Assembly: GCA_964620965.1 (NCBI GenBank)
Contig: CAZUHV010000002.1
Coordinates: forward strand, 117,452 to 181,451
DNA from: an uncultured Pseudomonadales bacterium
Lineage (GTDB): Bacteria; Patescibacteriota; Microgenomatia; UBA1400; PJMF01
Reading direction: 5' to 3'
DNA: 64,000 nt
A program made the position numbers and the translations under genes. Shown piece by piece: positions 5,178 to 58,700 of the stretch. Under the pieces are notes generated by a model. It saw nothing but the letters and a program-made list of their open reading frames with translations. It did no database searches and was not told where the DNA came from. Position 1 is the stretch's first letter; every line of letters begins with the position of its first letter.

Positions 5178-6218
5178 ATGAGAAAAAATCTAAATAATAC
5201 TTTTTATCTTTCTTTCTTGGCAATTTTGTTTGTTCTTGTGTTTTTAGCAACTCCTCAAAAAGCCTCTGCTGCCCAACTTACGGAAGGATATCTCAGACTC
5301 AATAGAATGAAAGCTTCAACTGCTACCGGAGGCACAGTCTGTGCAAAGATGGCAACAACAGCTGGAACAGACGCTAAAATAAAGGTTACTTTCCCAACAG
5401 GCTTTACAGTAAACTCTACTGCAAGCAACTGGACTGTTACCACTTCCAATCTTCCAGAAAATGGAAGTGCAATGCCAGGTATAGATACTGCAACTGCAGT
5501 ATCTGGACAAACAGTAACTTTCCCGATCTCAGACATTTCTTCAAACTCAACACTATATTGTTTTAACTTTGCAAGTTCTAGCACATTAACTACAAGTACA
5601 GCAGGAAACGACAAAACGGGTTCTATCTCTGTCACTACAAGTGGTGACTCAGAAATAGATGGTGGTATTTATGCAACCTCAGTTATCTCTGATGACCAAG
5701 TAGTTATTACTGCTACTGTTCCTGCAACATTTAGTTTCGCCTTAGGATCTAACACTCAATCACTCGGAACACTTTCAACTGGAAGTGTAAGCTCAGGATC
5801 TGGTGTGAGTGTCACAATTGGAACTAATGCTGGTAATGGTTGGATTGGTTGGGTACTCAGTGCAAATGCCGCCCTTAATTCTGCTGCAACAAGTGATGCT
5901 ATTTCTACGACTGGCTCTGTAGATAACTCCCCTAGCACTCTCTCTGCTGGAACCGAAGGATATGTTTTAGATGCAGATCTTACTTCCGATTCTGCGACAA
6001 GTGGCACTGGAAGTGTGACAATTGATGCAGAATATAATGGCACAACAACAAGTCAAGGTGGAACCCTTTCGACAACATTTACAGAATTCGCCTCTGCAGA
6101 TGGACCAACAGATAGTGACGTTATCACACTTGTCCCTAGAGTTGCAATTTCTGCCTTAACCCAAGCTGCTACAGATTACACTGACACTCTCACAGTTGTT
6201 GCTGCTGGACACTTCTAG
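5178..6218 (+). CDS. secreted Ser/Thr/Gly-rich cell-surface protein, paralogue A
   Basis: Signal peptide MRKNLNNTFYLSFLAILFVLVFLATPQKASA|AQ, then low-complexity beta-rich sequence ending ...ATDYTDTLTVVAAGHF. The C-terminal roughly 100 aa are paralogous to 8864..9907. Confidence 0.7.
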   Translation: MRKNLNNTFYLSFLAILFVLVFLATPQKASAAQLTEGYLRLNRMKASTATGGTVCAKMATTAGTDAKIKVTFPTGFTVNSTASNWTVTTSNLPENGSAMPGIDTATAVSGQTVTFPISDISSNSTLYCFNFASSSTLTTSTAGNDKTGSISVTTSGDSEIDGGIYATSVISDDQVVITATVPATFSFALGSNTQSLGTLSTGSVSSGSGVSVTIGTNAGNGWIGWVLSANAALNSAATSDAISTTGSVDNSPSTLSAGTEGYVLDADLTSDSATSGTGSVTIDAEYNGTTTSQGGTLSTTFTEFASADGPTDSDVITLVPRVAISALTQAATDYTDTLTVVAAGHF

Positions 6219-6241: not shown

Positions 6242-7375
6242 ATGAGGATTCGACTTAAGTACATATTTTTTTTGTTTTTCTTAATAGCACAGTTATTCTT
6301 TGTTAATACAAAAATTGCTTTCGCCCAAACTGAAACTAGTGAACCAGAGGCAACCGAATCTGCTCAAGAATTTATATATATCGAACCAAATTCAGAACCA
6401 CTCAACCTTACAATTTCTCCTGCAACCTTACTATTAGATACAAAACCAGGAAACCCAGTAAATACTTCTTTTCAAGTCTTTAATAATTCTACAGAAACTG
6501 AGTATCTTAAAATTGACTTACTCACATTTGGTGCAAATGCCACTGGAGACGAACCGGTTATCAAGCCCTTCGAACTAGGAGATGATTCCGAATCTTGGCT
6601 CACTTTTGATAATAAAAACATAACAGTTCAACCAAAAACTTGGAAAACTGTTCACGTAACCTTTTCTCCACCAGAATCTGCAGCGCTTTCATACTACTAT
6701 TCAATAGTAATTTCAAGACAAACCTCACAAACCATAAAAGAAGGAGAAACAAACGTTGTTGGAGCTCCTGCTTTGCTATTACTTGCTACTGTTCAATCTC
6801 CATACGCAAAGCAAGAGTTACAGTTGAAAAGCTTCAAAACTACAAAAAAAATATTTGAGTTTCTTCCTGTGGAATTTGAGTTAACAATACAAAATACAGG
6901 AAATGTACATCTTGCTCCAGTTGGTAACATATTTATAGATAGCAGCAGAGAAAAAGATGTTGGATTGATTCAAATAAACAGAACAAATGGTCTCATACTT
7001 CCAGGCTCAACAAGAACATATACACTAAGGTGGGAAGACGGATTTCCAGTTTTTGCCGATAAACAAGTAGATGGCTCTATAGTAACTGACTCAGCCGGAA
7101 ATCCAAAGAAAGAACTCAAATGGGATTTTTCTAAAGCAAACTTTTTTAGGTTTGGAAAATACACTGCACACCTTTTATTTATTTTTGACAACGGAGAAAG
7201 AGACGTCCCAACAGAGGCTAAACTATCATTTTGGGTCCTACCATATAGGATACTTGTTATCTTTGGTTTAGTTGGAGGTACAACTATTCTTGGGATAGCC
7301 ATCCCACTAGTACTTATATTTAAACGTATGCGAAAACAAAATGAAAAAAAACAAACTCCCACTGAAACTAAATAG
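6242..7375 (+). CDS. secreted beta-sandwich protein with a C-terminal transmembrane anchor (CscA-like, DUF916/DUF3324-type architecture)
   Basis: N-terminal signal peptide, a LTISPATLLLDTKPGNP...FQVFNNS segment, a TIQNTGNVHLAPVGNIFID motif, and a C-terminal TM ILVIFGLVGGTTILGIAIPLVLIF followed by a basic tail KRMRKQNEKK. Confidence 0.65.
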   Translation: MRIRLKYIFFLFFLIAQLFFVNTKIAFAQTETSEPEATESAQEFIYIEPNSEPLNLTISPATLLLDTKPGNPVNTSFQVFNNSTETEYLKIDLLTFGANATGDEPVIKPFELGDDSESWLTFDNKNITVQPKTWKTVHVTFSPPESAALSYYYSIVISRQTSQTIKEGETNVVGAPALLLLATVQSPYAKQELQLKSFKTTKKIFEFLPVEFELTIQNTGNVHLAPVGNIFIDSSREKDVGLIQINRTNGLILPGSTRTYTLRWEDGFPVFADKQVDGSIVTDSAGNPKKELKWDFSKANFFRFGKYTAHLLFIFDNGERDVPTEAKLSFWVLPYRILVIFGLVGGTTILGIAIPLVLIFKRMRKQNEKKQTPTETK

Positions 7376-8279
7376 ATACTTTCATATTCTTTTTCTATTT
7401 ATTTTTATATACTTCTTTCCAAAAGCAGTATTTGCACAAGAATCTCTTACTGTTTCGCCTGCATACCAAGAAGTAGTTCTTGAACCTCAAAATGATTCTA
7501 GTGAGTTCAGTATCTCTATCAGAAATGACACAAAAATAGCAGAGTCTTTCGAACTATTTGCTGTTGAGTTTCCTTCTGGTGCACAGTTTGGATCACTTGG
7601 ATTTATTGATTTTGATTCAAGCGATATTAAACAACAGCCGAGCTACATTTCATTTGACACTCAACAGTTTGTTGTTGATCCAAATACTTCAAAAGAAATT
7701 CACGCTACTATCGAAAACCGAGCAAGCTTAAAACCAGGTGGAACGTATCTTTCTGTTATTATTCGATCCTTGAGAGAAAAAAATAGCTCTGGGCAAACAA
7801 TTCTTCCAGCATTCGCTTCTCAACTTCTAATTCGAAAAACTGAAGGTGAGATAAAAAATATTTCACTTAAAACTGTCAGCGATACAGACAAAATTATATC
7901 ATTTACGATCCCAAAAACTGTAAAACTGTTATTTGAAAATAATGGAAATGTACACCTCATTCCTAGAGGAGAAGTGCGAATCGATACAGTATTTGGTGAA
8001 ACAATAAGTCAAGGAATAATTAATGAATCATCTTCTTATGTATATCCAGATAGTCAAAAAGAAATTACTGTACAGCTTTCTCAAGTAAATAAAAAAATAC
8101 CAATCTCGCTCATCACAATTACTGCTTTTGGCTCAGCCAATTCTATAGAATATAGAGCAGAACACTCATATATTTATATCAACCCATACTTTGTGGGCAT
8201 ATCCGCAACACTTTTTTTCTTGTTTATACTCTATGCATTCAAAAAGATAAAAAAACAACCAAAACATGAAACTGAATAA
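7341..8279 (+). CDS. second CscA-like secreted protein with a C-terminal TM anchor; paralogue of 6242..7375
   Basis: Signal peptide, LTVSPAYQEVVLEPQND...FSISIRNDT, ENNGNVHLIPRGEVRID motif, and C-terminal TM YFVGISATLFFLFILYAF plus KKIKKQ. It overlaps the previous gene by 35 nt. Confidence 0.65.
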   Translation: MKKNKLPLKLNRYFHILFLFIFIYFFPKAVFAQESLTVSPAYQEVVLEPQNDSSEFSISIRNDTKIAESFELFAVEFPSGAQFGSLGFIDFDSSDIKQQPSYISFDTQQFVVDPNTSKEIHATIENRASLKPGGTYLSVIIRSLREKNSSGQTILPAFASQLLIRKTEGEIKNISLKTVSDTDKIISFTIPKTVKLLFENNGNVHLIPRGEVRIDTVFGETISQGIINESSSYVYPDSQKEITVQLSQVNKKIPISLITITAFGSANSIEYRAEHSYIYINPYFVGISATLFFLFILYAFKKIKKQPKHETE

Positions 8280-8844
8280 AGTTATTTTAATCTGTACAAC
8301 TGTATTTTTTGTTATACTTTTTAGTATATACCTGTGGGGAAATACACCAAATTCCGGTGAAATCATTAGCACAGCTCAAACCACACAATTAAATGAAGAT
8401 CTAGAAATTAAAACTAATACAGAAGAAAAAAATTCTTGTTTTTCATTTTTTCATGATCAAAACATTACTCAAATCAAAACAGAAGAATTCGATACAACTT
8501 GTATCATTCGAGCAAAAGTCGAAAAACCAATTGGACAACTGAGCATTTCTGTTGTTCAAAATACAGAAAATAAAAACTTTGACTTAGCAGAACAAACCGG
8601 AGTAACCTTACGAAAAAGTTTGCCCGATATCTACACACAAGAAATAAATATCCAAAACAAGCCAAAATTTTTTGAAAACGATAGCAATTTCAACTCAATT
8701 ATTTTTACTAATAAAACAGAAATTACAGGATTTTTTACTCAATCGAACAAACTCCTTACCGTTTCTATCCACGATGTTGCTACAATAAATGAAGAAGTTA
8801 TTTCTATCTTTGAAGAAACTCTTGATGGAGTAACAATTTATTAA
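8266..8844 (+). CDS. hypothetical signal-anchored protein
   Basis: A 192-aa ORF with an N-terminal hydrophobic segment ILICTTVFFVILFSIYLW. It overlaps the upstream gene by 14 nt, which suggests an operon. Confidence 0.5.
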   Translation: MKLNKVILICTTVFFVILFSIYLWGNTPNSGEIISTAQTTQLNEDLEIKTNTEEKNSCFSFFHDQNITQIKTEEFDTTCIIRAKVEKPIGQLSISVVQNTENKNFDLAEQTGVTLRKSLPDIYTQEINIQNKPKFFENDSNFNSIIFTNKTEITGFFTQSNKLLTVSIHDVATINEEVISIFEETLDGVTIY

Positions 8845-8863
8845 GTACCACTAAACAAAAGTA

Positions 8864-9907
8864 ATGAAGCCAAAACTGCTGTTTTTATTATTATTCTTTG
8901 TAATACCAGCTAGTACAAATTATAAACTAGACGCACATGGTATTGGATCGGGTGGGGGAATCACAAATTCATCATCTTATTCATTACTAGGAACAACCGG
9001 AGAACAATCTAGTAAAACAGAGGGATCTTCATACTCTGTTTGGTCTGGGATTCAATTTGCCGAAATGGCAAATACTCCACCTGCACCAACATTTGTTAAT
9101 GAAGATTCATACTATAATAAGCTAAGAATTACACTTGATACTGGAAATAATCCAACAGATACCCTCTACGCAATAGCAATTTCTACAGACAGTTTTACCA
9201 CAACAGAATATGTACAGTCGGACAACACTGTTGGCTCCACACTTGGAAGTGAAGATTGGCAAACATATGCAGATTGGGGAGGAAGTAGTGGTGAATTCGT
9301 TGTAGGGCTTGATGCTGATACAACCTACCAAGTAAAAGTAAAAGCAATTCAAGGAGATTACACAGAAAGCCCATATGGACCAAGTGCTTCTGCAGCAACT
9401 TCCGCTTTAACACTTTCTTTTGATATTGATGTCAGTTCAATTGATGAGGAAACAGCCTCACCTTATGAAGTTTCTTTAGGTTCACTCAATCCCGACACTG
9501 TTATCACGGCAACAGATAAAATATGGCTCGATCTTTCAACAAATGCAAATAATGGAGCAGTCATTTATGTGGCTGGCAGTACCGGAGGTTTATACAGCAA
9601 CTCTACAGCACACACTATCTCTGGTGTCAGTGCAGATTTAACTGGAGTATCAGAAGGATTCGGCTTAAAATCTGCAAGTGTTGCTGAAAGCAGCGGAGGT
9701 CCCTTAACTGCTGTTTCTCCATATAATGGTAGTAGTGATACTGTTGGTACTATAGCAACAACACTTGCATCTTTGTATAATACCTCTACTGCACCAATTA
9801 GTGCTGCAAGAGGGTCAATAGATATCAAAGCAAAGGCACAGTCACTCACACCTTCTGCAACAGACTATGCTGAGACTTTGACGTTCATTGCCGCAGCTAA
9901 TTTTTAA
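8864..9907 (+). CDS. secreted Ser/Thr/Gly-rich cell-surface protein, paralogue B
   Basis: Signal peptide MKPKLLFLLLFFVIPAS. The C-terminal region EGFGLKSA...YNGSSDT...ATDYAETLTFIAAANF aligns with the C-terminus of 5178..6218. Confidence 0.7.
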   Translation: MKPKLLFLLLFFVIPASTNYKLDAHGIGSGGGITNSSSYSLLGTTGEQSSKTEGSSYSVWSGIQFAEMANTPPAPTFVNEDSYYNKLRITLDTGNNPTDTLYAIAISTDSFTTTEYVQSDNTVGSTLGSEDWQTYADWGGSSGEFVVGLDADTTYQVKVKAIQGDYTESPYGPSASAATSALTLSFDIDVSSIDEETASPYEVSLGSLNPDTVITATDKIWLDLSTNANNGAVIYVAGSTGGLYSNSTAHTISGVSADLTGVSEGFGLKSASVAESSGGPLTAVSPYNGSSDTVGTIATTLASLYNTSTAPISAARGSIDIKAKAQSLTPSATDYAETLTFIAAANF

Positions 9908-9982
9908 TCAAAAAATTCCACCGTTTCGGACTTTGTTCTACTAGTTAATAGCGTAGAGAAATTGCTATATTGACAAGGTAAT

Positions 9983-11833
9983 ATGTTTAATAAAAACCAC
10001 TGGTTAGCTGGTCTTGTTTTTGGTAGTGTACTCATGCTCTTTTCAGTGGTATTTTTTAATCCAATTTTTGCTGCAACAGGAATTAATGAAAACATACATT
10101 TTCAAGGCAAAGTAGTAAATACAGACGGCACAAATGTAGCAAATGGAGACTACGATTTTGTCTTCAAACTCTATACTGTAGATTCTGCGGGAACTGCCAT
10201 TTGGACAGAAAATAGAACTTCTGCAAACCAAGTCACAGTCACCGATGGGGTCTTTAGCGTAGACTTGGGATCTGTGACTGCACTACCTGGTTCCGTTGAT
10301 TTTAATACCGATAATATTTACTTGGGTGTTGAATTTAACGGGGATGGAGAGATGAGTCCAAGAATCCAATTTACTGCTGTTCCATATGCTCATAATGCCG
10401 CAAAAGTTGGGGGACTTACTGTTACAGATACAACAAGCACTCTTACAATTCCAAGTGGTATAACTGTTGCTTTTTCTGGCTCAAATGATACAACTTTTAC
10501 AACATCAGGATCTACTAACGTAACACTCCCAACAACCGGTACACTTGCAACTCTTGCAGGGAGTGAAACTTTGACAAACAAAATTATTGGAAACACAGGT
10601 CTTACTTTTTCTGGAGCAACTACAGACATTACAACAGGAACCAACGAACACCTTTCAATTATGCCAAATGGAACTGGAAATGTTGGTATTGGAACTACCA
10701 ATCCATCAGAAAAACTGTATGTTTACAACTCTGTTAATAATCAAACTGGTTTTGTAGTTAGCAATGATAACTCCGGCAGTGCAGCTCAAGCCTTCTTTGC
10801 TATTGGTAGCAATCCTACAGCGAATCCATGGAATGGAGTATTTTTTCAGCACTATGGAGCAAACTTTACACCAAATGGCTTAAGAATGCCTAGTTCAACA
10901 ACAATAATTGGTGGTGGAAGCAATGGCTTAAGTATTGGAACAGATAATAGTTCTTCACTAAACTTTTTTACTAGTGGTGTTGCAAGTGGGGCAGATATGA
11001 CGTTAAATAGTAGCGGAAACTTAGGTATTGGAACAACAAACCCTACAGAACTACTACACGTTAATGGAAATATTAGAGCTAATGGATCAGTGGCTGGAGT
11101 AACAACTCTAGCAAGCTCTGGAGACTGGACTTGGACTGCGACAACACCAAACATTACAATTAACTCTGCTGAAGTTTTTACTATCACTGATGGCACTGAT
11201 ACTTTTACAGTTAATACCTCCGGCTCATTATTCTCATTCTTAGACGGATCTTCAAATGGGTTTACATTTGACGCTGATACAGGCCCTCTATTCGCTGGTA
11301 CAGCAAGACCTGCAAGAAAAGAAAAACTCGTACCAGAATATCCAGGTGCAGTACTTACCGGAGACGGAAGTAATAATACTGGAACTATGACTTCAGACTT
11401 CTGTGAACAAGGTGCACATGCCGATATCCCTGATATAAACACCACAACTTGTAATACGTCTGGAGATATCCACAACTACTACAGCTGGACTACCAATCAA
11501 GGATCTGCTCAAGATTATGACATTTGGGTGCGCTGGAGAATTCCAGATAACTTCGCCGTATGGGATTCAAACCCAATCCAAGTATATGCAAAACGTACAG
11601 ATACAACTAATAATGCAGTTACTGCGTTCGTATACGACACGGCTGGTGCCTTAAACAATGCCGGAGGCACCCAAATCGCTGGAACAACTTGGACGCAAAC
11701 AGCTATCTCTCTTTCTGGAGGCACTTGGACTGCTGGCTCTTATGTAACTATCAGAATAACCGTAGCCGCTGATACTGGAGGGGATAGTGTGCAAGTTGGA
11801 GAAATAAACCTTAACTACCTTACGAATAATTAG
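9983..11833 (+). CDS. secreted fibre-like surface protein with repeated GN[VL]GIGTTNP motifs
   Basis: Signal peptide ...PIFA|ATG. The repeats GNVGIGTTNPSEKLYV and GNLGIGTTNPTELLHVNGNI are of the type seen in tail-fibre-like proteins. The sequence is Thr/Ser/Gly-rich and 616 aa long. Confidence 0.7.
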   Translation: MFNKNHWLAGLVFGSVLMLFSVVFFNPIFAATGINENIHFQGKVVNTDGTNVANGDYDFVFKLYTVDSAGTAIWTENRTSANQVTVTDGVFSVDLGSVTALPGSVDFNTDNIYLGVEFNGDGEMSPRIQFTAVPYAHNAAKVGGLTVTDTTSTLTIPSGITVAFSGSNDTTFTTSGSTNVTLPTTGTLATLAGSETLTNKIIGNTGLTFSGATTDITTGTNEHLSIMPNGTGNVGIGTTNPSEKLYVYNSVNNQTGFVVSNDNSGSAAQAFFAIGSNPTANPWNGVFFQHYGANFTPNGLRMPSSTTIIGGGSNGLSIGTDNSSSLNFFTSGVASGADMTLNSSGNLGIGTTNPTELLHVNGNIRANGSVAGVTTLASSGDWTWTATTPNITINSAEVFTITDGTDTFTVNTSGSLFSFLDGSSNGFTFDADTGPLFAGTARPARKEKLVPEYPGAVLTGDGSNNTGTMTSDFCEQGAHADIPDINTTTCNTSGDIHNYYSWTTNQGSAQDYDIWVRWRIPDNFAVWDSNPIQVYAKRTDTTNNAVTAFVYDTAGALNNAGGTQIAGTTWTQTAISLSGGTWTAGSYVTIRITVAADTGGDSVQVGEINLNYLTNN

Positions 11834-11835
11834 AT

Positions 11836-14800
11836 ATGCATATGCTCTTCCAACAACTCGCAAAAATTAAACTTAAGAAAAAAATACTTGTTAAGTCAAC
11901 AAGATTTGTTTTAGCACTCTGGTTTATTATTTCTAACTTTTTGTTTGGCTTTCCAATTGACTACATTTTAAAAACACCAGTTGTGATTCAACAAGCGAAA
12001 GCAAATTCAAACACCTATGACTTTACTGACTGTGGCAGCACCTGTGATACTGACACCGGGTGGTGGGCATCTGACGATGATGTCGATCAGTTTCCGTTTG
12101 GTGGAGTTACAGCAAATCGAAACACACATGCAGAAGCAGACGATACAAACTATTCTAATATGGCAAACTCAGATGATACTTATGCAGTAGCAACTAATCC
12201 AAGCACTGGAGATGAAGTATTCAGCTGGTTTGAAATGACCATTACTGAAACGCCAAGCACTATTAAACAACTTGACTTTACTTTTGAAGGGTATCCTAAC
12301 ACTACTGCCTCACCATTTCAAATTTATGTCAAAACCGCCGCTGGTGCCTATGAATCTGATGCTTCATGGACTGCGCTTTCTGGACCAACAACAATTGCAG
12401 CTGGTACTGACACAACGATAACTCGTACACTCAAAGATAATATTACTGATTACATCGATGGAAATGGCAAAATAGTTTGGGGTGTCTACCAATCTGTATC
12501 AGCGCTTACCGTTAATATCGACTACGCAAAAATTGACGTTACATACCATCCAGTTGATTTAGAAGGATACAGATGGAGAAATGATGACGGCAACGAAACT
12601 GGCGCTACTTGGCTGGCAGATCAAGACAGCAATATTACTCAGCCAACAGCAACCAATACTAGACTGCGCACACTCATTAACTCAACGGGTACCGCTGATC
12701 CAGATACAAGCCAATATAAACTTGAATATAAACGTTCTACTGACAGTACTTATGTCCCAGTCGAGGTCACAACTCCCACAGATGTCACACCGACAATAGA
12801 ATCATGGTCTTCTGGTGCTTCAACTACAACTAATGCGTCTACTCATGCCATCACAATGCCTTCTGGAATTACTGCTGGTGATTTGCTTATCATAGTTTTT
12901 TCAACAGATGGTGTCGCAGATATTACCATCACAGCTGGTGATTGGATTGAACTAAGTCAAGCTCAAGGAAGTGGCGTTTCTAGTGGTATTTTTTATAAAT
13001 TTGCAACGGGCTCTGACACTGCAACGGTTGCAACTGGTTCAGAACAGACTTCCCATATTGTCTATAGAATTAGTGGTGCTAGTATGCCATATATTGCCCA
13101 AACAACTGGAAATAGTACTAACTCAGATCCACCAAATTTAGATACTGGCACTTCTCGAAACTATTTGTGGCTTGCTACTGCAACACATGATTCTACTGTT
13201 GTTGCATCAGCTGCGCCAACAAACTACTCAAATCTACATACCCAAGCTGCTGCAGGAACTGGTGGAGCATCTACGAGTACTGCAGAACGAGCTGCAACTG
13301 CCTCAAGCGAAAACCCAGGTACTTTTACTAGCAATACAGAGCAATGGGTTTCTTTTACAATTGCAATTCCTTCTTCAAGTATGGGAATACATTGTGCAAC
13401 CGCTCCAACAACCCAAGGTACAACAAGTGTTGTTATAAACTATCCAACGGATATAGCTGTCGGTGATCTCATGGTTCTGGGCATTGCAAATAAACATACT
13501 CCAAATGGTCCAACAACTCCCACTGGCTGGACTGCTGCCTCAAACTACCAAGCCTCAGGGAGTGGAGGTATTGATGGTCTAGACAGTGGAAGTGTGTACT
13601 CGTCAGTTTATTACAGAATTGTTGATGGTACAGAAAAAGGTACTTTTACTGTGAGTGTTCCCTCTGGAAATGCATCTATTGGCAGAATTTTGACGTATCG
13701 AAAGGAAGTCGGCAAAGAATGGGATGTTGCCATGTCAAATGGATCAGACAATACTCCAGATACCTCTTGGTCAATCACTGCTGGTTCTGACCCTGGAATA
13801 ACTGCTGGAGACATGGTCTTAGCGGTCAGTGCAATGAATACTGATCCCTATGGATATAACACACAAACCTTAGCAGCAACTGGCGTAACTTTTGACAGTG
13901 CAGAAAAAGAAGTCGGTGAGACAAATAGTACTGCTGGTAATGACCTTGAAATTGTTTTTTCAAACCATTTTGCGATTTCTGGCACCAGTAGTGCTGCTCC
14001 AACATACACTATGACAGCTAGTGGTTCTACTGCCAGTGGTCCTGCTGGAGCAACTGTTTTTGTGAGAATCCGCCAAAGAACTGCTCCAATCACTTTGTCT
14101 GCAAGTACTCATATTACTGCAAGTGGTGATAATACTACTGCTTTATTAACTCCTCCAGCAGGAAAAACTACTGGTGACTTTCTTACTGGTCGTATGCAAG
14201 ATGATGAAAATCCCGCAGATACTATTAACCTCTCTTCTAGCCAATACACAGAACTAGAATGGAATATTATTGCAACAAGTACGGCTGTGAATGATGAAAT
14301 TTACCAATTTAGAGTAACTGTAGGAGGTGTGCCAATTACTACTTACTCTGTAACACCACAGTGGACAATCGGTACTGCTGGAACGGCAGACCTTAATCAA
14401 ATTCATTACCGCTGGAGAAATGATGATGGCACAGAAGGATCATCTGGCTGGTACGATTCAAACTGGGTGTATAGAAAAAAGCTCACAATTGATAATACAG
14501 ATGTGGCAGGTAGTTCTAACCTCACCAACTTTCCTGTCTTGATTAACTATACACACGCTGATTTAAAAGATACAACCAACTCTGGTCACGTAGCACAATC
14601 AGATGCTGGTGATATTCTGTTTACTAACTCTGCGGGTACTAAACTTGACCATGAAATTACCAAATATGTGCCATCAACAGGTCAAGTAATTGCTTGGGTA
14701 GAAGTTGATGTTTTAGACTATGACGATGACACAGAAATTTATATGTACTATGGTTACGGTGCGGCTAGTGACCAATGGAATATAAGCGGAACTTGGAGCA

Positions 14801-16584
14801 ATGGCTATGTTATGGTGCAACATTTTAACGAAACTTCAGGAACTCACTTTGACTCTACTTCCAATAATAATGATTCAACCTCTGTGACTGTCACAACACA
14901 AGGTACTGCCACAGCCCAAATTGATGGAGCTGATGATTTTAATGGTTCTAATAACTATGTTGCCGTTGGTGATTCCAATTCACTAGATGTTACAAATTTT
15001 ACTATTTCTGGATGGTTTTCTATTGATACATTTCCTGGAACAGATCAATACAATAATATTCTTGATAAACAAGCCTATTTCCTTGAAGTAACAGATAACG
15101 ACGAATTTGACTGTGGAGTATACGATGGAAGTTTTTCTGAACATAACTCTGGTACCGCAAATCTCTCAACCGGAACTTACTACTATCTTGCCTGTGCATA
15201 TGATGATACGGGGGATACTGTTAGATTATATAAAAATAGTACTGAAGTATTAAATGAAGCTGCAACCAAAACACCAGCAACAAATAATATCGATATTGGT
15301 ATATACGCTCTTAGCGGAAATTTAGGCCAACAGCTCGACGGTCAAGCTGATGAGCTGGTTCTATCTAATGTCGCCCGTTCTGCGGATTGGCTCAACACCG
15401 AATACAACAACCAAAGTAATCCTGGAGTTGGAGGCTTTCTCACCAGTATAGGCACTGAAGAAACCGAAGGAACGGGCGCAACCTGGTTAGCGAATGAAGA
15501 CACGGCAGTTACAGATATTGCTAAAGAAACAAACGTAAGAATAAGATTTATGGTTTCTAATGAAGGTGGTGCTACATCAGATGCTACAGCATACCAATTA
15601 GAAGTTGCAGAAACTGGTACTTGTAGTGGTGGAACATATGCTGCTGTCCCAACTGACACGAGTGGAGACTGGCAAGTTTCGGCCTCAGCACATTTTACAG
15701 ACGGAGATCCCACAACAAATATTGCAAGTGGTCTAGCAGATGAAAACACAACTTTTGTTGCTGGACAAATTAAAGACACTGGCAACACTACAGGAAATAT
15801 CACATTAGCAGATACAGAATTTACAGAAATAGAGTTTTCCATTCAAGCTACAACCAATGCTACTGACGGTGGCTCGTACTGCTTTAGATTAAATGGTGCA
15901 GATACGTTCACTGAATACGCACAAGCCACACTCGAGGGAGGGGCAAGCCCCGTTTTTTCACTGAGTGCCTATCGATTTTATGATCAAACAGCTTCAGAAA
16001 ATGTCACAAACCCTTGGGGAAATCCTACTATTGCTGAAAATACACTACTTGCTCTTCTGCCAGCAACTAACACTCCTCCAGGAAATAGAGAAGATATAAG
16101 ACTAAGAGTTGGCATATCAGTTAGTACTGGGGCACTCTCCGCAACGAGTCAACAATTTAAATTACAATACAAGTCAGGCACTGATGCAAACTGTACTACA
16201 GGGTCATGGACTGACGTTGGAACGTCTATTAGTAGTGAAACATGGAGATACTCTACAACAGGTATCACTGACGGTACAACGCTGACAGCTCTTAAATTAT
16301 CTGGAAGTGATGTATTAGGCGTGTATGTAAAATCAAATCCAAGCGCAACAAACCCAAATGCTGTAGCTGTTGGAGAAACAGTTGAATATGATTTCAACTT
16401 TAAAGGCTTTAGTGCTGCATCAGCAACCACATATAGCTTTAGAGTTGTCGAAAGTGATGGAACTCCTTTAACAACATACACCTACTGTCCGACTCTTACA
16501 ACAAAAGCCGCTACAGAACAAGAATTACGGCACGGAAACGTGTTTTCTAATGAGACAGAACAAGGATTTACCCGTGCAAATTAG
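11836..16584 (+). CDS. giant (1582 aa) surface protein with Ig-like repeats and DUF2341 and LamG/concanavalin-like modules
   Basis: N-terminal TM FVLALWFIISNFLFGF. Repeated domain-start motifs appear: EGYRWRNDDGNETGATW, IHYRWRNDDGTEGSSGW and GTGATWLANEDTAV. A DUF2341-like segment reads WVYRKKLTIDNTDVAGSSNLTNFPVLINY...GDILFTNSAGTKLDHEI...IYMYYGYG. A LamG-like segment follows: FNGSNNYVAVGDSNSLD...FTISGWFSID...YYLACAYDDTGDTVRLYKNS. Confidence 0.8.
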   Translation: MHMLFQQLAKIKLKKKILVKSTRFVLALWFIISNFLFGFPIDYILKTPVVIQQAKANSNTYDFTDCGSTCDTDTGWWASDDDVDQFPFGGVTANRNTHAEADDTNYSNMANSDDTYAVATNPSTGDEVFSWFEMTITETPSTIKQLDFTFEGYPNTTASPFQIYVKTAAGAYESDASWTALSGPTTIAAGTDTTITRTLKDNITDYIDGNGKIVWGVYQSVSALTVNIDYAKIDVTYHPVDLEGYRWRNDDGNETGATWLADQDSNITQPTATNTRLRTLINSTGTADPDTSQYKLEYKRSTDSTYVPVEVTTPTDVTPTIESWSSGASTTTNASTHAITMPSGITAGDLLIIVFSTDGVADITITAGDWIELSQAQGSGVSSGIFYKFATGSDTATVATGSEQTSHIVYRISGASMPYIAQTTGNSTNSDPPNLDTGTSRNYLWLATATHDSTVVASAAPTNYSNLHTQAAAGTGGASTSTAERAATASSENPGTFTSNTEQWVSFTIAIPSSSMGIHCATAPTTQGTTSVVINYPTDIAVGDLMVLGIANKHTPNGPTTPTGWTAASNYQASGSGGIDGLDSGSVYSSVYYRIVDGTEKGTFTVSVPSGNASIGRILTYRKEVGKEWDVAMSNGSDNTPDTSWSITAGSDPGITAGDMVLAVSAMNTDPYGYNTQTLAATGVTFDSAEKEVGETNSTAGNDLEIVFSNHFAISGTSSAAPTYTMTASGSTASGPAGATVFVRIRQRTAPITLSASTHITASGDNTTALLTPPAGKTTGDFLTGRMQDDENPADTINLSSSQYTELEWNIIATSTAVNDEIYQFRVTVGGVPITTYSVTPQWTIGTAGTADLNQIHYRWRNDDGTEGSSGWYDSNWVYRKKLTIDNTDVAGSSNLTNFPVLINYTHADLKDTTNSGHVAQSDAGDILFTNSAGTKLDHEITKYVPSTGQVIAWVEVDVLDYDDDTEIYMYYGYGAASDQWNISGTWSNGYVMVQHFNETSGTHFDSTSNNNDSTSVTVTTQGTATAQIDGADDFNGSNNYVAVGDSNSLDVTNFTISGWFSIDTFPGTDQYNNILDKQAYFLEVTDNDEFDCGVYDGSFSEHNSGTANLSTGTYYYLACAYDDTGDTVRLYKNSTEVLNEAATKTPATNNIDIGIYALSGNLGQQLDGQADELVLSNVARSADWLNTEYNNQSNPGVGGFLTSIGTEETEGTGATWLANEDTAVTDIAKETNVRIRFMVSNEGGATSDATAYQLEVAETGTCSGGTYAAVPTDTSGDWQVSASAHFTDGDPTTNIASGLADENTTFVAGQIKDTGNTTGNITLADTEFTEIEFSIQATTNATDGGSYCFRLNGADTFTEYAQATLEGGASPVFSLSAYRFYDQTASENVTNPWGNPTIAENTLLALLPATNTPPGNREDIRLRVGISVSTGALSATSQQFKLQYKSGTDANCTTGSWTDVGTSISSETWRYSTTGITDGTTLTALKLSGSDVLGVYVKSNPSATNPNAVAVGETVEYDFNFKGFSAASATTYSFRVVESDGTPLTTYTYCPTLTTKAATEQELRHGNVFSNETEQGFTRAN

Positions 16585-17191
16585 AATAATTACTTTTGCA
16601 ATATTTTTTCTTTTTTTAGTGTTTATAACATACAACTTGTTTTTTGTTCCAGATGATCATTCAAAATCAGAAGGGTCAACTCTCGCTCTTTCAAGTGATG
16701 GTTCAAAAACAGATATATTTATTCAAGATAGTGAGACTCTCATACCTATCTCTACAGCAAGTGCAAATCATAATGAAGCATTCTCCAGAGGAGACTTTAT
16801 AGTCTGGATAGAAGAATCTCAATATAAAAGTGAAAAAGTTGTCGTTCGGTATCATGTTCCTACACAAACTACTATCTACATAACTTCACTTGGAAGTTCA
16901 CAGAAACCTAAAGTTAGTACAGAAGGTTATGTTGTATGGCAAGAATGGATAGATGAAACCTGGCAGATTTTTTACTTTGATGGTTTGACCAGCAAACAAA
17001 TAACTCACAGTAGTTCGAGCTCTCTTAATCCAGATATTTCTGGAAATACAGTTGTGTATGCTAGAAAAAATGAATCTAACACATGGGAAACTATTGAATT
17101 TTCCCTTAAAAATAACACTGAAAAAGTGGTTAAATCTGGAATTGAAGCTAAAAATCCCTATTTTTATGGCACAAAATTATTTTTTCGCTGA
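16550..17191 (+). CDS. hypothetical signal-anchored protein (beta-propeller-like fragments)
   Basis: A 213-aa ORF with N-terminal TM IITFAIFFLFLVFITYNLFF. It overlaps the end of the giant gene by 35 nt and ends with TGA. Confidence 0.5.
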   Translation: MRQNKDLPVQIRIITFAIFFLFLVFITYNLFFVPDDHSKSEGSTLALSSDGSKTDIFIQDSETLIPISTASANHNEAFSRGDFIVWIEESQYKSEKVVVRYHVPTQTTIYITSLGSSQKPKVSTEGYVVWQEWIDETWQIFYFDGLTSKQITHSSSSSLNPDISGNTVVYARKNESNTWETIEFSLKNNTEKVVKSGIEAKNPYFYGTKLFFR

Positions 17192-19897
17192 AAAATGAAT
17201 TTCATGTAAATATACACTGATTTCGGTATTTAGATAAAGTAAAAAATTTCCCAAAGAAAGCACTAAAAATGGAATTGCATAGTGTTTTTCATATACAAAA
17301 ACAAATAGTATTGCAGTTACTAATGACAAAAGTAAATTAATTTCCAATGCGCTGTCTAAAAAGTGCTTTAACAAAGATATTACTAACGAAAAATAGGATT
17401 TCTGAGCACTCTCTTTTTCAAGTTTTAATAGAGTACTTTCTTCAACTTCTGGCTTAAGATCAATCGACTGTGGAGCATAACCAGGAGCTACAACAGAAGC
17501 TGTAAGTGCTTCATCTAAGCTTTTTGGTACAAAAACCAATCCGTTTCTATGAACCTGTATCAGACTCTTTATCTGACCAGCAGAATCTTGAACTGTCACA
17601 ACTGCATTTCTCACCAACCGCTCAGTCTGAGTATCAACAAGCTTAATTTTATAATACTGACTTCCACCAACAACTAAGGTCTTCTTTTTACTAAAAATAA
17701 ATCTATGGTGGTGCAAAACAGAATGCAGTAATGTTCTTACCGAAAAATGAGATCGGGTTAAAAATCCAAACAAAGTAAGCGGGGTAGTAATACATAAAGT
17801 TAGCAGTGTAATCAATGTCAGCGTTGCATGAGACTCAGATTCCTTTTTCAAAAAGGTAACAAATAACTCAGTCTTTATTTTTGCTGTTTCAACATGATAT
17901 TCCACAGTTTTAAAGTATGGAAAGTATTCTTTTTCTAAATACAGTTGTGGGTAAAAAGTTGCGTTTGTAGTGTCAAATTCTAGAGATTGAGGGACATACC
18001 CAGTACTTTCAACCTCAATAAAATACTTGCCTTTAGGAAAAATAATGTCAATGCTACCTGCTGAGTTTGTAACATATTTTTCAAAAAAATCATATAATTT
18101 TGTAGTCTCATTATATTTTTTTATGTTCACTTTAGCTCGTTCAATCGGAAGTTTTGAGGCAGAATCATATACAGAAAAAGGTTGTACTACTAACAACTTT
18201 CCTAGACTAATATTTTTTTTGCTTCCAGCAAATGATTCTAAAGTTAGATACACCTGATATTTTCCAGGAATGTGTGGAATGGTCAAAGACCCAGACCAAA
18301 TCCCGTTTTGGATTTGGCTTATCTGAGATCCATACTGTGATTCTCCAAGTACTAAGCCTAAATCAATATCTGTTATTGTTTGTAGATATAAAGTTACCGA
18401 CTTTGTATCAAAACCTTCTAACAGTGGCAAAATAACTTCAAGCTCACTTCCTGCAGGAATGAGTAAATATTCCGGATCACCTAAGGAAGGAGAAAAAATA
18501 GGTTTTCCTTTCGAACTAACTGTAAAAGAAGTAAGTGTTACTGGATATGAGTCACTTGCTGTTAAAAATGCTAGTCGTTCAGAGCTACTTTGAACTCCAT
18601 TTTGAATTGAACTCAATAAGACATGGTATTCTTTATCTGGAAACAAATTATCTAAAACCAAGCTGTGGACCTTCTGTATTTGTAGTGACTCAAACACCTC
18701 TAACTTGGTCCCATCAACTGAGTAAACCGTCGCAGTTAGAGTACCAGGAGTATTCAAAATAACCTGCAACTCAGCAGATGTGCTCTCTACCGCAACTATT
18801 TTGTATGATACATACCCCGAAGATGCAGTTGTAGTAACTGCTGTTTGGCTTGTTGTACTTGCAGCCGGCGAAGAAGTTGGGGTAGGTGTACTCCCAGTAT
18901 TTGAAGTCGAAGATCCAGAAGAGCTTGAAACATACTTATAACTCACTTCACTTGTACTGTCTGTTGTGGTAACTGGATTTGTAATACGACTATTCACTTG
19001 AGCTGTTACTTCAGAGGACCCTGTATATTGAGCTGTAGTTTTTAGTATAAATGAGACTGTTTGGTTTTGAGTATTACCAGGAATTGCTGAAATCGTCCAA
19101 GTAATTGTTCTGTTGGTTAAGTTGATAACCGGCTCTGTATTATTATAAGCATCAGTGGCACTCCCAGCTACGTACTCAAAAAGGTCTACTGATGGAGAAC
19201 CAGCTCCAAAAATCGTCCCTTGTTCCCATTCTGCGACAATCGTTAGAGGTGTTGAAAAATCGTACTCAGTTCCATAAGTGATCACATACTCAATCTGCGT
19301 ATTCTGAGGAATTTGAGTTACTGAATCCTGCGTACTAATAACTGCAGAAAAATCAGAAATAGGAGGCAAAACTTGACCTGTAACAACTATTTGATCGTTT
19401 GAAACTACTGGAACAACTATGTCGACTAGATCAACTTGAGAACCACCTTGCCTTGTTTCTAACTGCCAAATATATTCACTAGAACTTCCTTGAGTACTTG
19501 GGTTGTTAGTTATTCCTCCAGTGATATAAAAACCATACGTTATTCCAACAGATAGATCCCCACTTGGAAACACTACTGTCTGCCCAGATTTTTGAACTGC
19601 TGTTCCAATACCTGGCCATGCAGTAATACCACTTGGTAGACCTGAAGTTGAAACTGTATATGAGCTCGCTACACTTGATATTGTCCATAAATTTGAAATC
19701 GTAACAGCTACTTGATCTTCAGTAACTCCTACACTTGAAACTGTTGCTGTAATCAAAACTGGAAGAGGAACACTTGAAACCTTATTTCTCTCTGGTCGAA
19801 CTGTTGCATTAGAAAAATCTGCCAAAACAGACTGGGGAATAAACAAAAAAAAGACCAACAAAAAGAAAGCTGTGACTCGACAGATAAGTTGTTTCAT
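17177..19897 (-). CDS. large (906 aa) secreted/anchored surface protein with carboxypeptidase-regulatory-like (Cna-B-like) domains and C-terminal TM helices
   Basis: Signal peptide MKQLICRVTAFFLLVFFLFIPQSVLA, long Ser/Thr-rich tracts, and a KYFIEVESTGYVPQ-type beta-sandwich. C-terminal hydrophobic segments flank a His-rich loop (LHSVLHHHRF). It is convergent with the plus-strand cluster. Confidence 0.75.
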   Translation of the reverse strand: MKQLICRVTAFFLLVFFLFIPQSVLADFSNATVRPERNKVSSVPLPVLITATVSSVGVTEDQVAVTISNLWTISSVASSYTVSTSGLPSGITAWPGIGTAVQKSGQTVVFPSGDLSVGITYGFYITGGITNNPSTQGSSSEYIWQLETRQGGSQVDLVDIVVPVVSNDQIVVTGQVLPPISDFSAVISTQDSVTQIPQNTQIEYVITYGTEYDFSTPLTIVAEWEQGTIFGAGSPSVDLFEYVAGSATDAYNNTEPVINLTNRTITWTISAIPGNTQNQTVSFILKTTAQYTGSSEVTAQVNSRITNPVTTTDSTSEVSYKYVSSSSGSSTSNTGSTPTPTSSPAASTTSQTAVTTTASSGYVSYKIVAVESTSAELQVILNTPGTLTATVYSVDGTKLEVFESLQIQKVHSLVLDNLFPDKEYHVLLSSIQNGVQSSSERLAFLTASDSYPVTLTSFTVSSKGKPIFSPSLGDPEYLLIPAGSELEVILPLLEGFDTKSVTLYLQTITDIDLGLVLGESQYGSQISQIQNGIWSGSLTIPHIPGKYQVYLTLESFAGSKKNISLGKLLVVQPFSVYDSASKLPIERAKVNIKKYNETTKLYDFFEKYVTNSAGSIDIIFPKGKYFIEVESTGYVPQSLEFDTTNATFYPQLYLEKEYFPYFKTVEYHVETAKIKTELFVTFLKKESESHATLTLITLLTLCITTPLTLFGFLTRSHFSVRTLLHSVLHHHRFIFSKKKTLVVGGSQYYKIKLVDTQTERLVRNAVVTVQDSAGQIKSLIQVHRNGLVFVPKSLDEALTASVVAPGYAPQSIDLKPEVEESTLLKLEKESAQKSYFSLVISLLKHFLDSALEINLLLSLVTAILFVFVYEKHYAIPFLVLSLGNFLLYLNTEISVYLHEIHFSAKK

Positions 19898-58323: not shown

Positions 58324-58700
58324 AAGTCGGGCCTCGTAGCTCAAAGAGTAGAGCAGTGCGATTTATCGCGAAGATACAAGTGCAATTCTTGTTGGGTCCA
58401 CAAAAATCAAGATGGCTAAACCAAAACTAACATCTCATTTGCCGTCATGATATAATTATCGAACAAAAGCATTTGAAACAGTTAGCAACTGTTGATGGTT
58501 CGCACCAATGCTGCTTGGGGTAAAAAACCAAGCCGGGTAAGCCCGTAACCGCAGGAAAAAGCTAATTTAGAGGTGGCACCGTCTGCGCTTTTGTGAGAAA
58601 TCACAAAACAGACCCTCTCAAGTATCAAGTATATTGGTACTGGGAAGTGTTTATTCCTTTAAAAAATATTCCCATACCAATACAACAAGAGGAGGTCACA
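58324..58700 (+). promoter_or_regulatory. T-box-like riboswitch leader of serS
   Basis: A stem-I-like helix GGGCC...GGGTCC lies at 58328-58398 and carries AGAGTAGAG (a GA/AGTA-like element) and an AGU in a loop. AATTTAGAGGTGGCACCGTC at 58564-58583 resembles the T-box consensus AATTAGGGTGGNACCGCG. A strong SD AAGAGGAGG lies at 58686-58694. Confidence 0.5.

Follow-up and report, generated by a model that had tools for sequence, protein, structure and literature searches.

The 64,000-nucleotide stretch analyzed here (the window; positions 117,452 to 181,451 of contig CAZUHV010000002.1, assembly GCA_964620965.1) carries a giant gene at 11836..16584 on the forward strand, which starts with ATG and encodes 1582 amino acids followed by a stop codon. 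Profile comparisons indicate that its product contains three copies of an all-β domain, which we call W, and that two of these are interrupted: a tandem pair of domains related to phage tail-module proteins (I1 and I2) lies within the first, and a DUF2341-LamG unit within the second. We propose that the protein is an N-terminally anchored, or secreted, modular cell-surface adhesin of a Microgenomates/Woesebacteria-type bacterium belonging to the candidate phyla radiation (CPR), acting with a fibre-like partner in host attachment, a reading that we consider probable. All features of the gene and of its two immediate neighbours lie on the forward strand, and positions are those of the window.

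An NCBI protein identical to the 1582-residue product is present on a 351-kb contig, and three orthologs of 1592-1603 residues, 61-68% identical, are collinear with it over the full length. This end-to-end collinearity shows that the gene is intact and conserved, and is not an assembly artefact. Those homologs that carry names belong to Candidatus Woesebacteria or the Microgenomates group, and the taxon is read from these names; the GC content of the window (~36%) together with its compact housekeeping gene content is compatible with a CPR genome. The protein is rich in Thr, Ser, Ala and Gly, and its fold content is all-β. DNA-level repeats were not found inside the gene, nor did self-BLAST of the protein find internal repeats; these are old, exist at the level of protein domains and required profile methods for their detection. 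A PDB sequence search with the whole protein returned nothing significant, and a promoter/terminator scan gave background-level results. No repeat of at least 40 nt involving the gene was found within the 64-kb window, and a diversity-generating retroelement target was rejected as there is no template/variable repeat pair in it.

The first-pass annotation of this open reading frame (ORF) described repeated Ig-like modules, each beginning with YRWRNDDG. The ORF and the repeat were both recovered. The motif occurs exactly twice, at aa 245 and aa 858, and its chance frequency computed from the protein's own composition is ~1e-11 per position, so the second copy is not a chance occurrence. GATW is found at aa 256 and again at aa 1214, where LANED follows at aa 1218. 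Comparison with hhalign of segments cut from the four-ortholog alignment matched aa 245-259 to 858-872 (94.5% probability), aa 253-297 to 1211-1256 (96%) and aa 753-845 to 1280-1366 (97.7%). YRWRNDDG forms strand A of a W domain of ~165-190 residues. The first copy, W-A, has an N-terminal piece at aa 243-318 (12562..12789), holding the first YRWRNDDG strand and the strands that follow it, and a C-terminal piece at aa 749-857 (14080..14406). The second, W-B, consists of strand A only at aa 858-870 (14407..14445), containing the second YRWRNDDG, and a remainder at aa 1214-1375 (15475..15960) that starts with GATWLANED. The third, W-C, is an intact, divergent copy at aa 1376-1560 (15961..16515) that starts with AYRFYD. 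In the MAFFT alignment A4, W-C lines up column by column with contiguous W copies of other proteins, and region 946-1129 of the homolog P0034 was matched by both W-B and W-C queries.

These assignments were examined with a W hidden Markov model (HMM) of 191 positions, built from contiguous copies of other proteins only, with the rows of the giant protein and its closest ortholog left out. The two pieces of W-A cover complementary parts of the model, aa 240-318 matching positions 8-74 (52 bits) and aa 749-860 positions 93-183 (60 bits); spliced in silico, they match as one domain over positions 8-183 with 108 bits. Similarly, aa 1205-1378 match positions 20-183 with 157.8 bits, and splicing strand A (850-870) before 1214-1378 extends the match to positions 4-183 and raises it to 180.7 bits, strand A of W-B being assigned to HMM positions 4-25. 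The region of W-C (aa 1370-1582) matches positions 4-190 with 154.8 bits. Complementary coverage and a single match after splicing together argue for three W domains, two of them split. Iterated HMM searches on the 47 homologs were rejected, since they drifted and merged neighbouring domains (for example, a 'W' match at 257-396).

W belongs to a large family. An exhaustive metagenome profile search yielded 4,839 cluster representatives at E<=1e-3, of which 881 also passed E<=1e-30, in proteins of up to 7,591 residues; one protein of 6,179 residues has 21 copies, and the named matches are from Patescibacteria and Parcubacteria groups. No Pfam family covers W in the giant protein or in six multi-copy members, and the W profile has no match among PDB sequences. 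YRWRNDDG does mark the start of a repeated module, as first annotated; the 'Ig-like' label found no support in a domain of ~165-190 residues with ~10 strands predicted from the model and alignment and with neither a Pfam nor a PDB match. No Ig or fn3 Pfam match was found over W, and a Foldseek match to the Ig-like domains of PrgB (probability 0.51, rmsd 43 Å) is a whole-chain artefact. With the N-terminal half, Foldseek weakly matched the N-terminal region of reelin (E=4.5e-5, probability 0.82), and a 6-copy W protein has a sub-threshold Pfam match to Reelin_subrepeat-B. These weak reelin and carbohydrate-binding module (CBM) hints, the only ones for its fold, would suggest a jelly-roll for W. 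Its size and strand number suit the jelly-rolls of reelin subrepeats and CBMs better than Ig domains, although W has no significant sequence match to them. Among other members of the family, P0237 (2536 aa, 13 W copies) has an N-terminal N-methylation motif of the type IV pilin kind at 21.1 bits (cutoff 21.2), and some W-repeat proteins may be giant pilin-like proteins.

The interruption of W-B is accounted for by a unit of 343 residues at aa 871-1213 (14446..15474), delimited by Pfam, Foldseek and comparison with the relative P0005. Pfam detects DUF2341 (PF10102) at aa 923-1008 (14602-14859) with E=1.8e-9 and 38.3 bits (cutoff 23.4), over HMM positions 1-79 of 84, and the match was repeated on the isolated segment. 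Directly after it, at aa ~1036-1185 (14941-15390), lies Laminin_G_3 (PF13385); a scan restricted to aa 900-1215 gave E=6.4e-15 and 56 bits against a cutoff of 27.6, with HMM positions 1-149 of 151 covered. Laminin_G_3 was absent from the hmmscan output for the whole 1582-residue protein and is present in precomputed annotation of the orthologs P0002-4; whole-protein scans of Thr/Ser-rich multi-domain proteins can, as here, lose real domains. An AlphaFold model of the C-terminal half (aa 845-1582) has a predicted local distance difference test (pLDDT) score of 75-88 over DUF2341, and its Foldseek matches in the PDB are uniformly ConA/LamG lectin jelly-rolls with E down to 4e-9, including the Hc-N domain of clostridial neurotoxin/NTNHA, the lectin domain of trans-sialidase and domain 4 of AbnA. 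The last of these (5hon_A) has a target-normalised template modelling (TM) score of 0.67 and an rmsd of 4.4, with moderate pLDDT in the LamG region of the model. Both domains named in the first-pass annotation, for which a failure of domain scans had been set as the refuting outcome, were therefore detected, and in the order it gave.

A natural variant bears on the insertion. P0005 (1250 aa) is collinear with the giant protein except that aa 871-1213 are missing, and its junction is uninterrupted: YRWRNDDGDETSS|GATW, i.e. ...IHYRWRNDDGDETSS|GATWAESEDT... The absence of exactly these residues confirms that the DUF2341-LamG unit is inserted in W-B. The sequence GTGATWLANED, which had been taken for a module boundary, instead represents the resumption of W-B after the 343-residue insertion. 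At its edges the unit is conserved ('WYD.NW.YRK' ... 'G[TS][EQ]E'). In other proteins it stands on its own; its nesting in W is seen in the orthologous group of the giant protein only. The pair with the same edges recurs in Woesebacteria and Thorarchaeota proteins, in agreement with the initial remark that the combination is typical of archaeal and CPR proteins and with its occurrence in giant Patescibacteria proteins (PMC11809585).

W-A is interrupted between its two pieces by I1 at aa 321-512 (12796..13371) and its paralog I2 at aa 520-748 (13393..14079), the two being related in hhalign (91.7% probability) and by their homolog sets. I1 is 45% identical to the phage-encoded protein P0119 (E=8e-42) and 33% identical to a second one, P0172 (E=2e-17). 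A profile of 24 I copies (alignment A3) retrieved 228 proteins, many of them stand-alone proteins of 220-260 residues on contigs of ~36-45 kb. Two of them, P0119 and P0172, were examined in their gene context. P0119 is encoded within a phage tail module, in the order Phage_tail_T, TMP_2, DUF2460, Phage_BR0599, Phage-tail_3/Rcc01698_C, two ORFs, P0119, one ORF and Amidase_2. At the locus L003 the I-domain gene follows tape-measure, hub and host-specificity genes and precedes the lysin, and at L004 and L005 I-domain phage genes adjoin terminase, portal and capsid genes; next to P0172 lie a terminase gene, an ORF of portal size (595 aa) and a weak match to a capsid family. Both phages resemble those of Proteobacteria, one being of the PhiJL001, Caulobacter and Rhodobacter types, and the other like Rhizobium and Xylella podoviruses. 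On the P0172 phage contig (L004), the large terminase (11761-14226, 821 aa) carries a LAGLIDADG_3 domain, suggestive of an inserted intein or homing endonuclease. Searches with the I-domain profile against PDB sequences gave nothing significant, and when I1 and P0119 were compared by tblastn with 50,697 annotated phage records, nothing matched, so that no annotated name can be attached to the I domain. The domain was also found in a 'tail fiber domain-containing protein' of Armatimonadetes that has a Peptidase_S74 chaperone domain; it further occurs next to DUF6701, and in one Lewinellaceae protein from a genome-collection scan.

Relatives of the giant protein differ in these modules. I1 is missing from P0014, while P0006, P0009 and P0018 are without the whole W-B unit. 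In P0044, Gly_rich_2 (565-770) lies between W pieces that align to giant-protein residues 245-309 and 734-849, which indicates that the central loop of W-A hosts an unrelated insert there.

The model of the N-terminal half (aa 45-875) has a pLDDT of 77.6 and a predicted TM score of 0.69. Against the PDB, Foldseek returned weak matches only. These included a baseplate chain of phage phi812 and several CBMs, among which were alginate- and chondroitin-binding ones, CBM22 and CBM4. In a viral structure library, 63 matches were obtained at E<=1e-3, including minor tail proteins of mycobacteriophages over ~465 aligned columns, approximately the size of the I1-I2 tandem, and several phage proteins of ~200-250 residues with target-normalised TM scores of 0.59-0.70. 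The CBM matches raise the prospect of a secreted carbohydrate-active protein, whose CBM-like modules would target catalytic degradation of polysaccharides, and LamG-like domains do accompany glycosidases such as AbnA and the sialidases. However, Pfam, NCBIfam and PDB sequence searches found no catalytic domain in any segment, and the full length is taken up by non-catalytic all-β modules; we give this explanation hardly any credence.

The kinship of I1 and I2 with tail-module proteins, their fold resemblance to minor tail proteins, the phi812 baseplate chain and a tail-fibre-like gene upstream would also fit a phage- or tailocin-derived receptor-binding protein belonging to a domesticated tail-like particle or a prophage, as opposed to a cell-surface adhesin. 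The surroundings speak otherwise. The other ORFs scanned in the window encode DNA polymerase III alpha, CTP synthase, transketolase, LDH, an ATP synthase subunit, tRNA synthetases and SecA, which are housekeeping proteins; genes for a capsid, terminase, portal, tape measure, sheath or integrase were not seen among them, and they contained no phage Pfam families. PHROGs gave no match for any segment of the giant protein or for its neighbours, and a prophage was rejected given the housekeeping context and this result. In addition, the operon described below stands in different chromosomal surroundings in five genomes, and an N-terminal membrane or signal segment is atypical of virion proteins. 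We regard a virion or tailocin component as very improbable. A defence system was likewise rejected, as PADLOC returned no match for the segments or the neighbours.

In the proposed adhesin, the N-terminal segment would provide export or anchoring. Kyte-Doolittle analysis gives 19-residue windows above 1.6 that begin only at aa 23-24, with the same layout in the orthologs. The sole hydrophobic segment, aa 23-42 (11902..11961), follows a Lys-rich N-tail, and we interpret it as a predicted signal-anchor or long signal peptide, consistent with the surface protein first annotated. The next domain, Nt (aa 55-242; 11998..12561), is all-β with a model pLDDT of ~77-90. Delimited in alignment A5, where its mean column identity is 68%, it is conserved better than any other part of the protein, with two invariant Cys and numerous invariant acidic residues. 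Nt is present in 10 of the 47 homologs and has neither a Pfam match nor a PDB sequence match by profile search. At the other end, the conserved tail ...ELRHGNVFSNETEQGFTRAN (aa 1561-1582; 16516..16581) follows the pattern ...(Q/E)LRHGNVF..E.E.GFTRA(D/N), common to 16 homologs, among them ones of 2673 and 1711 residues with another architecture, and could be a sorting, docking or secretion signal. A sortase substrate was rejected, the C-terminus ...ELRHGNVFSNETEQGFTRAN having no LPXTG motif and no hydrophobic segment, and thus no anchor, after aa 42; among the related loci, a sortase gene lies upstream in L001 only. Nt (55-242), the two phage-tail-like domains (321-748), the third W copy (1376-1560, 'YRFYD') and the C-terminal tail had all been overlooked in the first-pass annotation.

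DUF2341 proteins have been proposed as tip adhesins linked to type IV pili (PilY1-like or MJ1470-type), and the giant protein might on this model be delivered and displayed by a pilus. The near-cutoff pilin methylation motif of P0237 would agree with it, as would the reported role of type IV pili in driving Saccharibacteria episymbiosis. The N-terminus of the giant protein, in contrast, shows on inspection a Lys-rich stretch followed by FVLALWFIISNFLFGF and lacks the G|F..E motif of a class III (pilin-type) signal, and the Pfam scan gave no N_methyl match. Phage or type IV pilus genes were absent from the larger ORFs scanned across the window, and pilus ATPase, platform and pilin families from the window ORFs scanned and the four related loci. 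Moreover, P0005 has no DUF2341 yet keeps the remaining protein and the operon. We consider pilus-borne display quite unlikely.

A probable partner of the adhesin is encoded by the gene directly upstream (9983..11833), which ends with a stop codon 2 nt ahead of the giant gene's ATG. Its product is a secreted, tail-fibre-like protein of 616 residues weakly resembling the mosaic adhesive trimer (MAT) fibres of Bdellovibrio. NCBIfam Bdello_MAT_N (NF053851), the model of their conserved N-terminal anchoring domain, matches aa 25-104 with E=2.8e-9 and 37 bits, and the MAT-type PDB entry 8ol4 aligns weakly (E=0.0032) at a GN(L/V)GIGTT motif. The longer motif GN(L/V)GIGTT...L.V.GN occurs twice in the protein, with a corresponding DNA repeat at 10666-10723 and 11005-11062. 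Downstream, a gene at 16550..17191 overlaps the 3' end of the giant gene by 35 nt and encodes 213 residues with an N-terminal transmembrane segment and β-propeller-type repeats (TIGR04275, E=1.2e-11, below cutoff).

Homologs of both flanking genes are retained in the four related loci. The fibre gene directly abuts the giant-gene homolog in three of the four; in the remaining locus, L006, they are separated by a second W protein of 1114 residues. In three of the related loci, the C-terminal ~250 residues of the fibre protein show 72-76% identity, a higher conservation than that of the giant protein. A homolog of the ~210-aa protein is found directly downstream in all four, at 29-48% identity, and a ~900-aa reverse-strand protein and a LytR_C protein are present in three of them. 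Across five genomes, the fibre-giant-~210-aa operon sits in differing chromosomal surroundings.

Nearby genes include one for the LytR_C protein and one for a transglycosylase, and the surrounding cluster encodes conserved secreted proteins. This setting, together with the Thr/Ser/Ala/Gly-rich, all-β composition, would suit a structural envelope or surface-layer (S-layer)-type protein without a specific ligand, in which jelly-roll and lectin folds serve as building blocks or bind the cell's own wall. Against it, each of three modules (I1, the DUF2341-LamG unit and W-B) is kept by some close relatives and missing from others, and Gly_rich_2 occupies the loop in P0044; such strong variation of modules is the pattern of a ligand-facing adhesin and not of a lattice-forming protein. 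The modules are also found in tail-module proteins of phages and in proteins that have a fibre chaperone domain (Peptidase_S74 in P0035). A purely structural role is, in our judgement, unlikely.

Several further features of the cluster were observed. At L006, on a 317-kb Microgenomates-type contig, tandem W proteins of 1114 and 1311 residues (6651-9995 and 10001-13936) stand behind the fibre-like gene and are followed by a 1162-aa PKD/LamG/GSDH protein; the tandem indicates that the locus can expand by paralog duplication. In the window, genes at 5178-6218 and 8864-9907 on the forward strand encode secreted proteins of ~346 residues with a common C-terminal domain ending TDY(T/A)(D/E)TLT..AA..F, which may be fibre or pilin-like subunits. 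The N-terminal ~170 residues of the 5178-6218 protein are also found in a 906-aa reverse-strand ORF (17177-19897). A homolog of the 8864-9907 protein is fused behind another DUF2341-LamG unit at L001 (5740-7866, 708 aa), indicating that this unit has been shuffled among genes of the cluster. The forward-strand genes at 6242-7375 and 7341-8279 encode paralogs with a signal peptide, Ig-like regions and a C-terminal transmembrane segment that has a basic tail; both are conserved at L001 and L007, and their Ig matches are sub-threshold only (fn3_5, Cep192, CFAP65). Their layout resembles that of the membrane-anchored partners of Gram-positive WxL surface-protein clusters, and Pfam gives no support for this. 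Elsewhere in the window, Rfam identifies a third tRNA at 58330-58400 on the forward strand (37 bits, above the gathering score) that ARAGORN did not call.

To return to the proposed adhesin, we envisage the three all-β W domains as a scaffold, with the loops of two of them displaying inserted ligand-binding modules. The central loop of W-A would carry the tandem pair of phage tail-protein-like I domains, and the loop after the first strand of W-B the lectin-type DUF2341-LamG unit, with the conserved Nt domain and C-terminal tail completing the protein. The giant gene would be co-transcribed, and its product probably act, with the MAT-like fibre protein and the small membrane protein. Together they would recognize and hold surface structures, most likely glycans, on the cells of the episymbiont's host. 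The gene and its domains, their nesting as seen in sequence profiles, the phage homology and the synteny are demonstrated here; we infer surface location, ligand binding and attachment from the N-terminal segment, what is known of the LamG lectin family, the position of I-domain genes in tail modules and the DUF2341 literature; co-operation with the neighbouring genes is part of the same proposal. DUF2341 in giant proteins of Patescibacteria has been proposed to serve adhesion or host interaction (PMC11809585), as have DUF2341-rich giant CPR proteins (PMC4858521).

Several observations weigh against this interpretation. The MAT-like matches of the 616-aa neighbour fall under curated thresholds, that to Bdello_MAT_N being below the 60-bit cutoff. 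The minor tail protein matches were assigned to I1-I2 by aligned length and sequence evidence, as Foldseek gave no query ranges, and a receptor-binding role for the I domain is suggested by gene position only. The model of the C-terminal half is poor (mean pLDDT 58.8), and the pLDDT below 50 at aa 845-872 leaves the docking of strand A onto W-B across the 343-residue insert without three-dimensional support.

The giant protein was compared with known systems. Like the DUF2341/LamG surface proteins of Patescibacteria and of DPANN and Asgard archaea, it is large, presumably secreted and encoded by an ultrasmall symbiont, and has Laminin_G_3 directly after DUF2341; its 1582 residues are mid-sized for the class; unlike in those proteins, the unit sits after strand A of W-B and is not a free bead on a string, and no pilus genes adjoin the giant gene. 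The I domains resemble phage minor tail and tail-module proteins, both in identity (33-45% to phage-encoded ones) and in fold (Mycobacterium phages MrMiyagi and Rope; 220-260-aa proteins of ~40-kb phage contigs). Here, however, two copies are held in a loop of a cellular, predicted membrane-anchored protein, and other phage genes were not found near the giant gene. Bdellovibrio MAT fibres are phage-like surface fibres that recognize glycans on the prey surface (PMC10769870), and the parallel extends to a bacterium living on bacteria, to phage-tail-fibre-like surface proteins with exchangeable modules, to the weak MAT matches of the neighbour and to the module swapping evident among relatives of the giant protein. 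It differs in that the giant protein is not a β-helical trimeric fibre and has no MAT signature, the neighbour's matches are below cutoffs, and the organism is a CPR bacterium instead of a deltaproteobacterial predator. In MpIBP of Marinomonas (PMC5550230), a giant modular adhesin, ligand-binding modules are carried on a stalk of β-sandwich repeats with more than 100 scaffold domains. The giant protein similarly combines repeated β-rich scaffold domains with a few distinct binding modules; it differs in having no RTX or type I secretion system (T1SS) signal, in its three scaffold domains and in modules that are nested and not strung between them.

Large DUF2341/LamG surface proteins in CPR bacteria have already been described. 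What appears to be new is that the YRWRNDDG repeat belongs to a large family without a Pfam model; that two clean domain-in-domain insertions have natural un-inserted counterparts; and that the inserted I domains are, by homology, of phage tail-module origin or kinship and lie next to a MAT-like fibre gene. We know of no cultured representative of the Microgenomates. According to PMC12206443, little is known about the means by which ultrasmall CPR/Patescibacteria episymbionts recognize their hosts and attach to them. The locus supplies a testable candidate for host recognition, a three-gene unit that combines a tail-fibre-like protein with phage-type and lectin-type modules. The W family, with its 4,839 cluster representatives and up to 21 copies per protein, could be defined as a new domain family, and the locus offers inserted and un-inserted states of its domains in close relatives. 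A bolder suggestion, which we regard as possible but doubtful, is that Microgenomates-type CPR bacteria have in the fibre-giant-210-aa operon an apparatus dedicated to host recognition, with receptor-binding modules borrowed from phages. If so, the I domains would let the episymbiont dock on receptors used by the phages of its host, and W would be a hitherto unrecognized display scaffold with two permissive loops in which I, DUF2341-LamG and Gly_rich_2 are swapped to alter host range. The similarity of I domains between CPR genomes and phages that co-occur with them could then be used to predict the hosts of uncultured CPR lineages.

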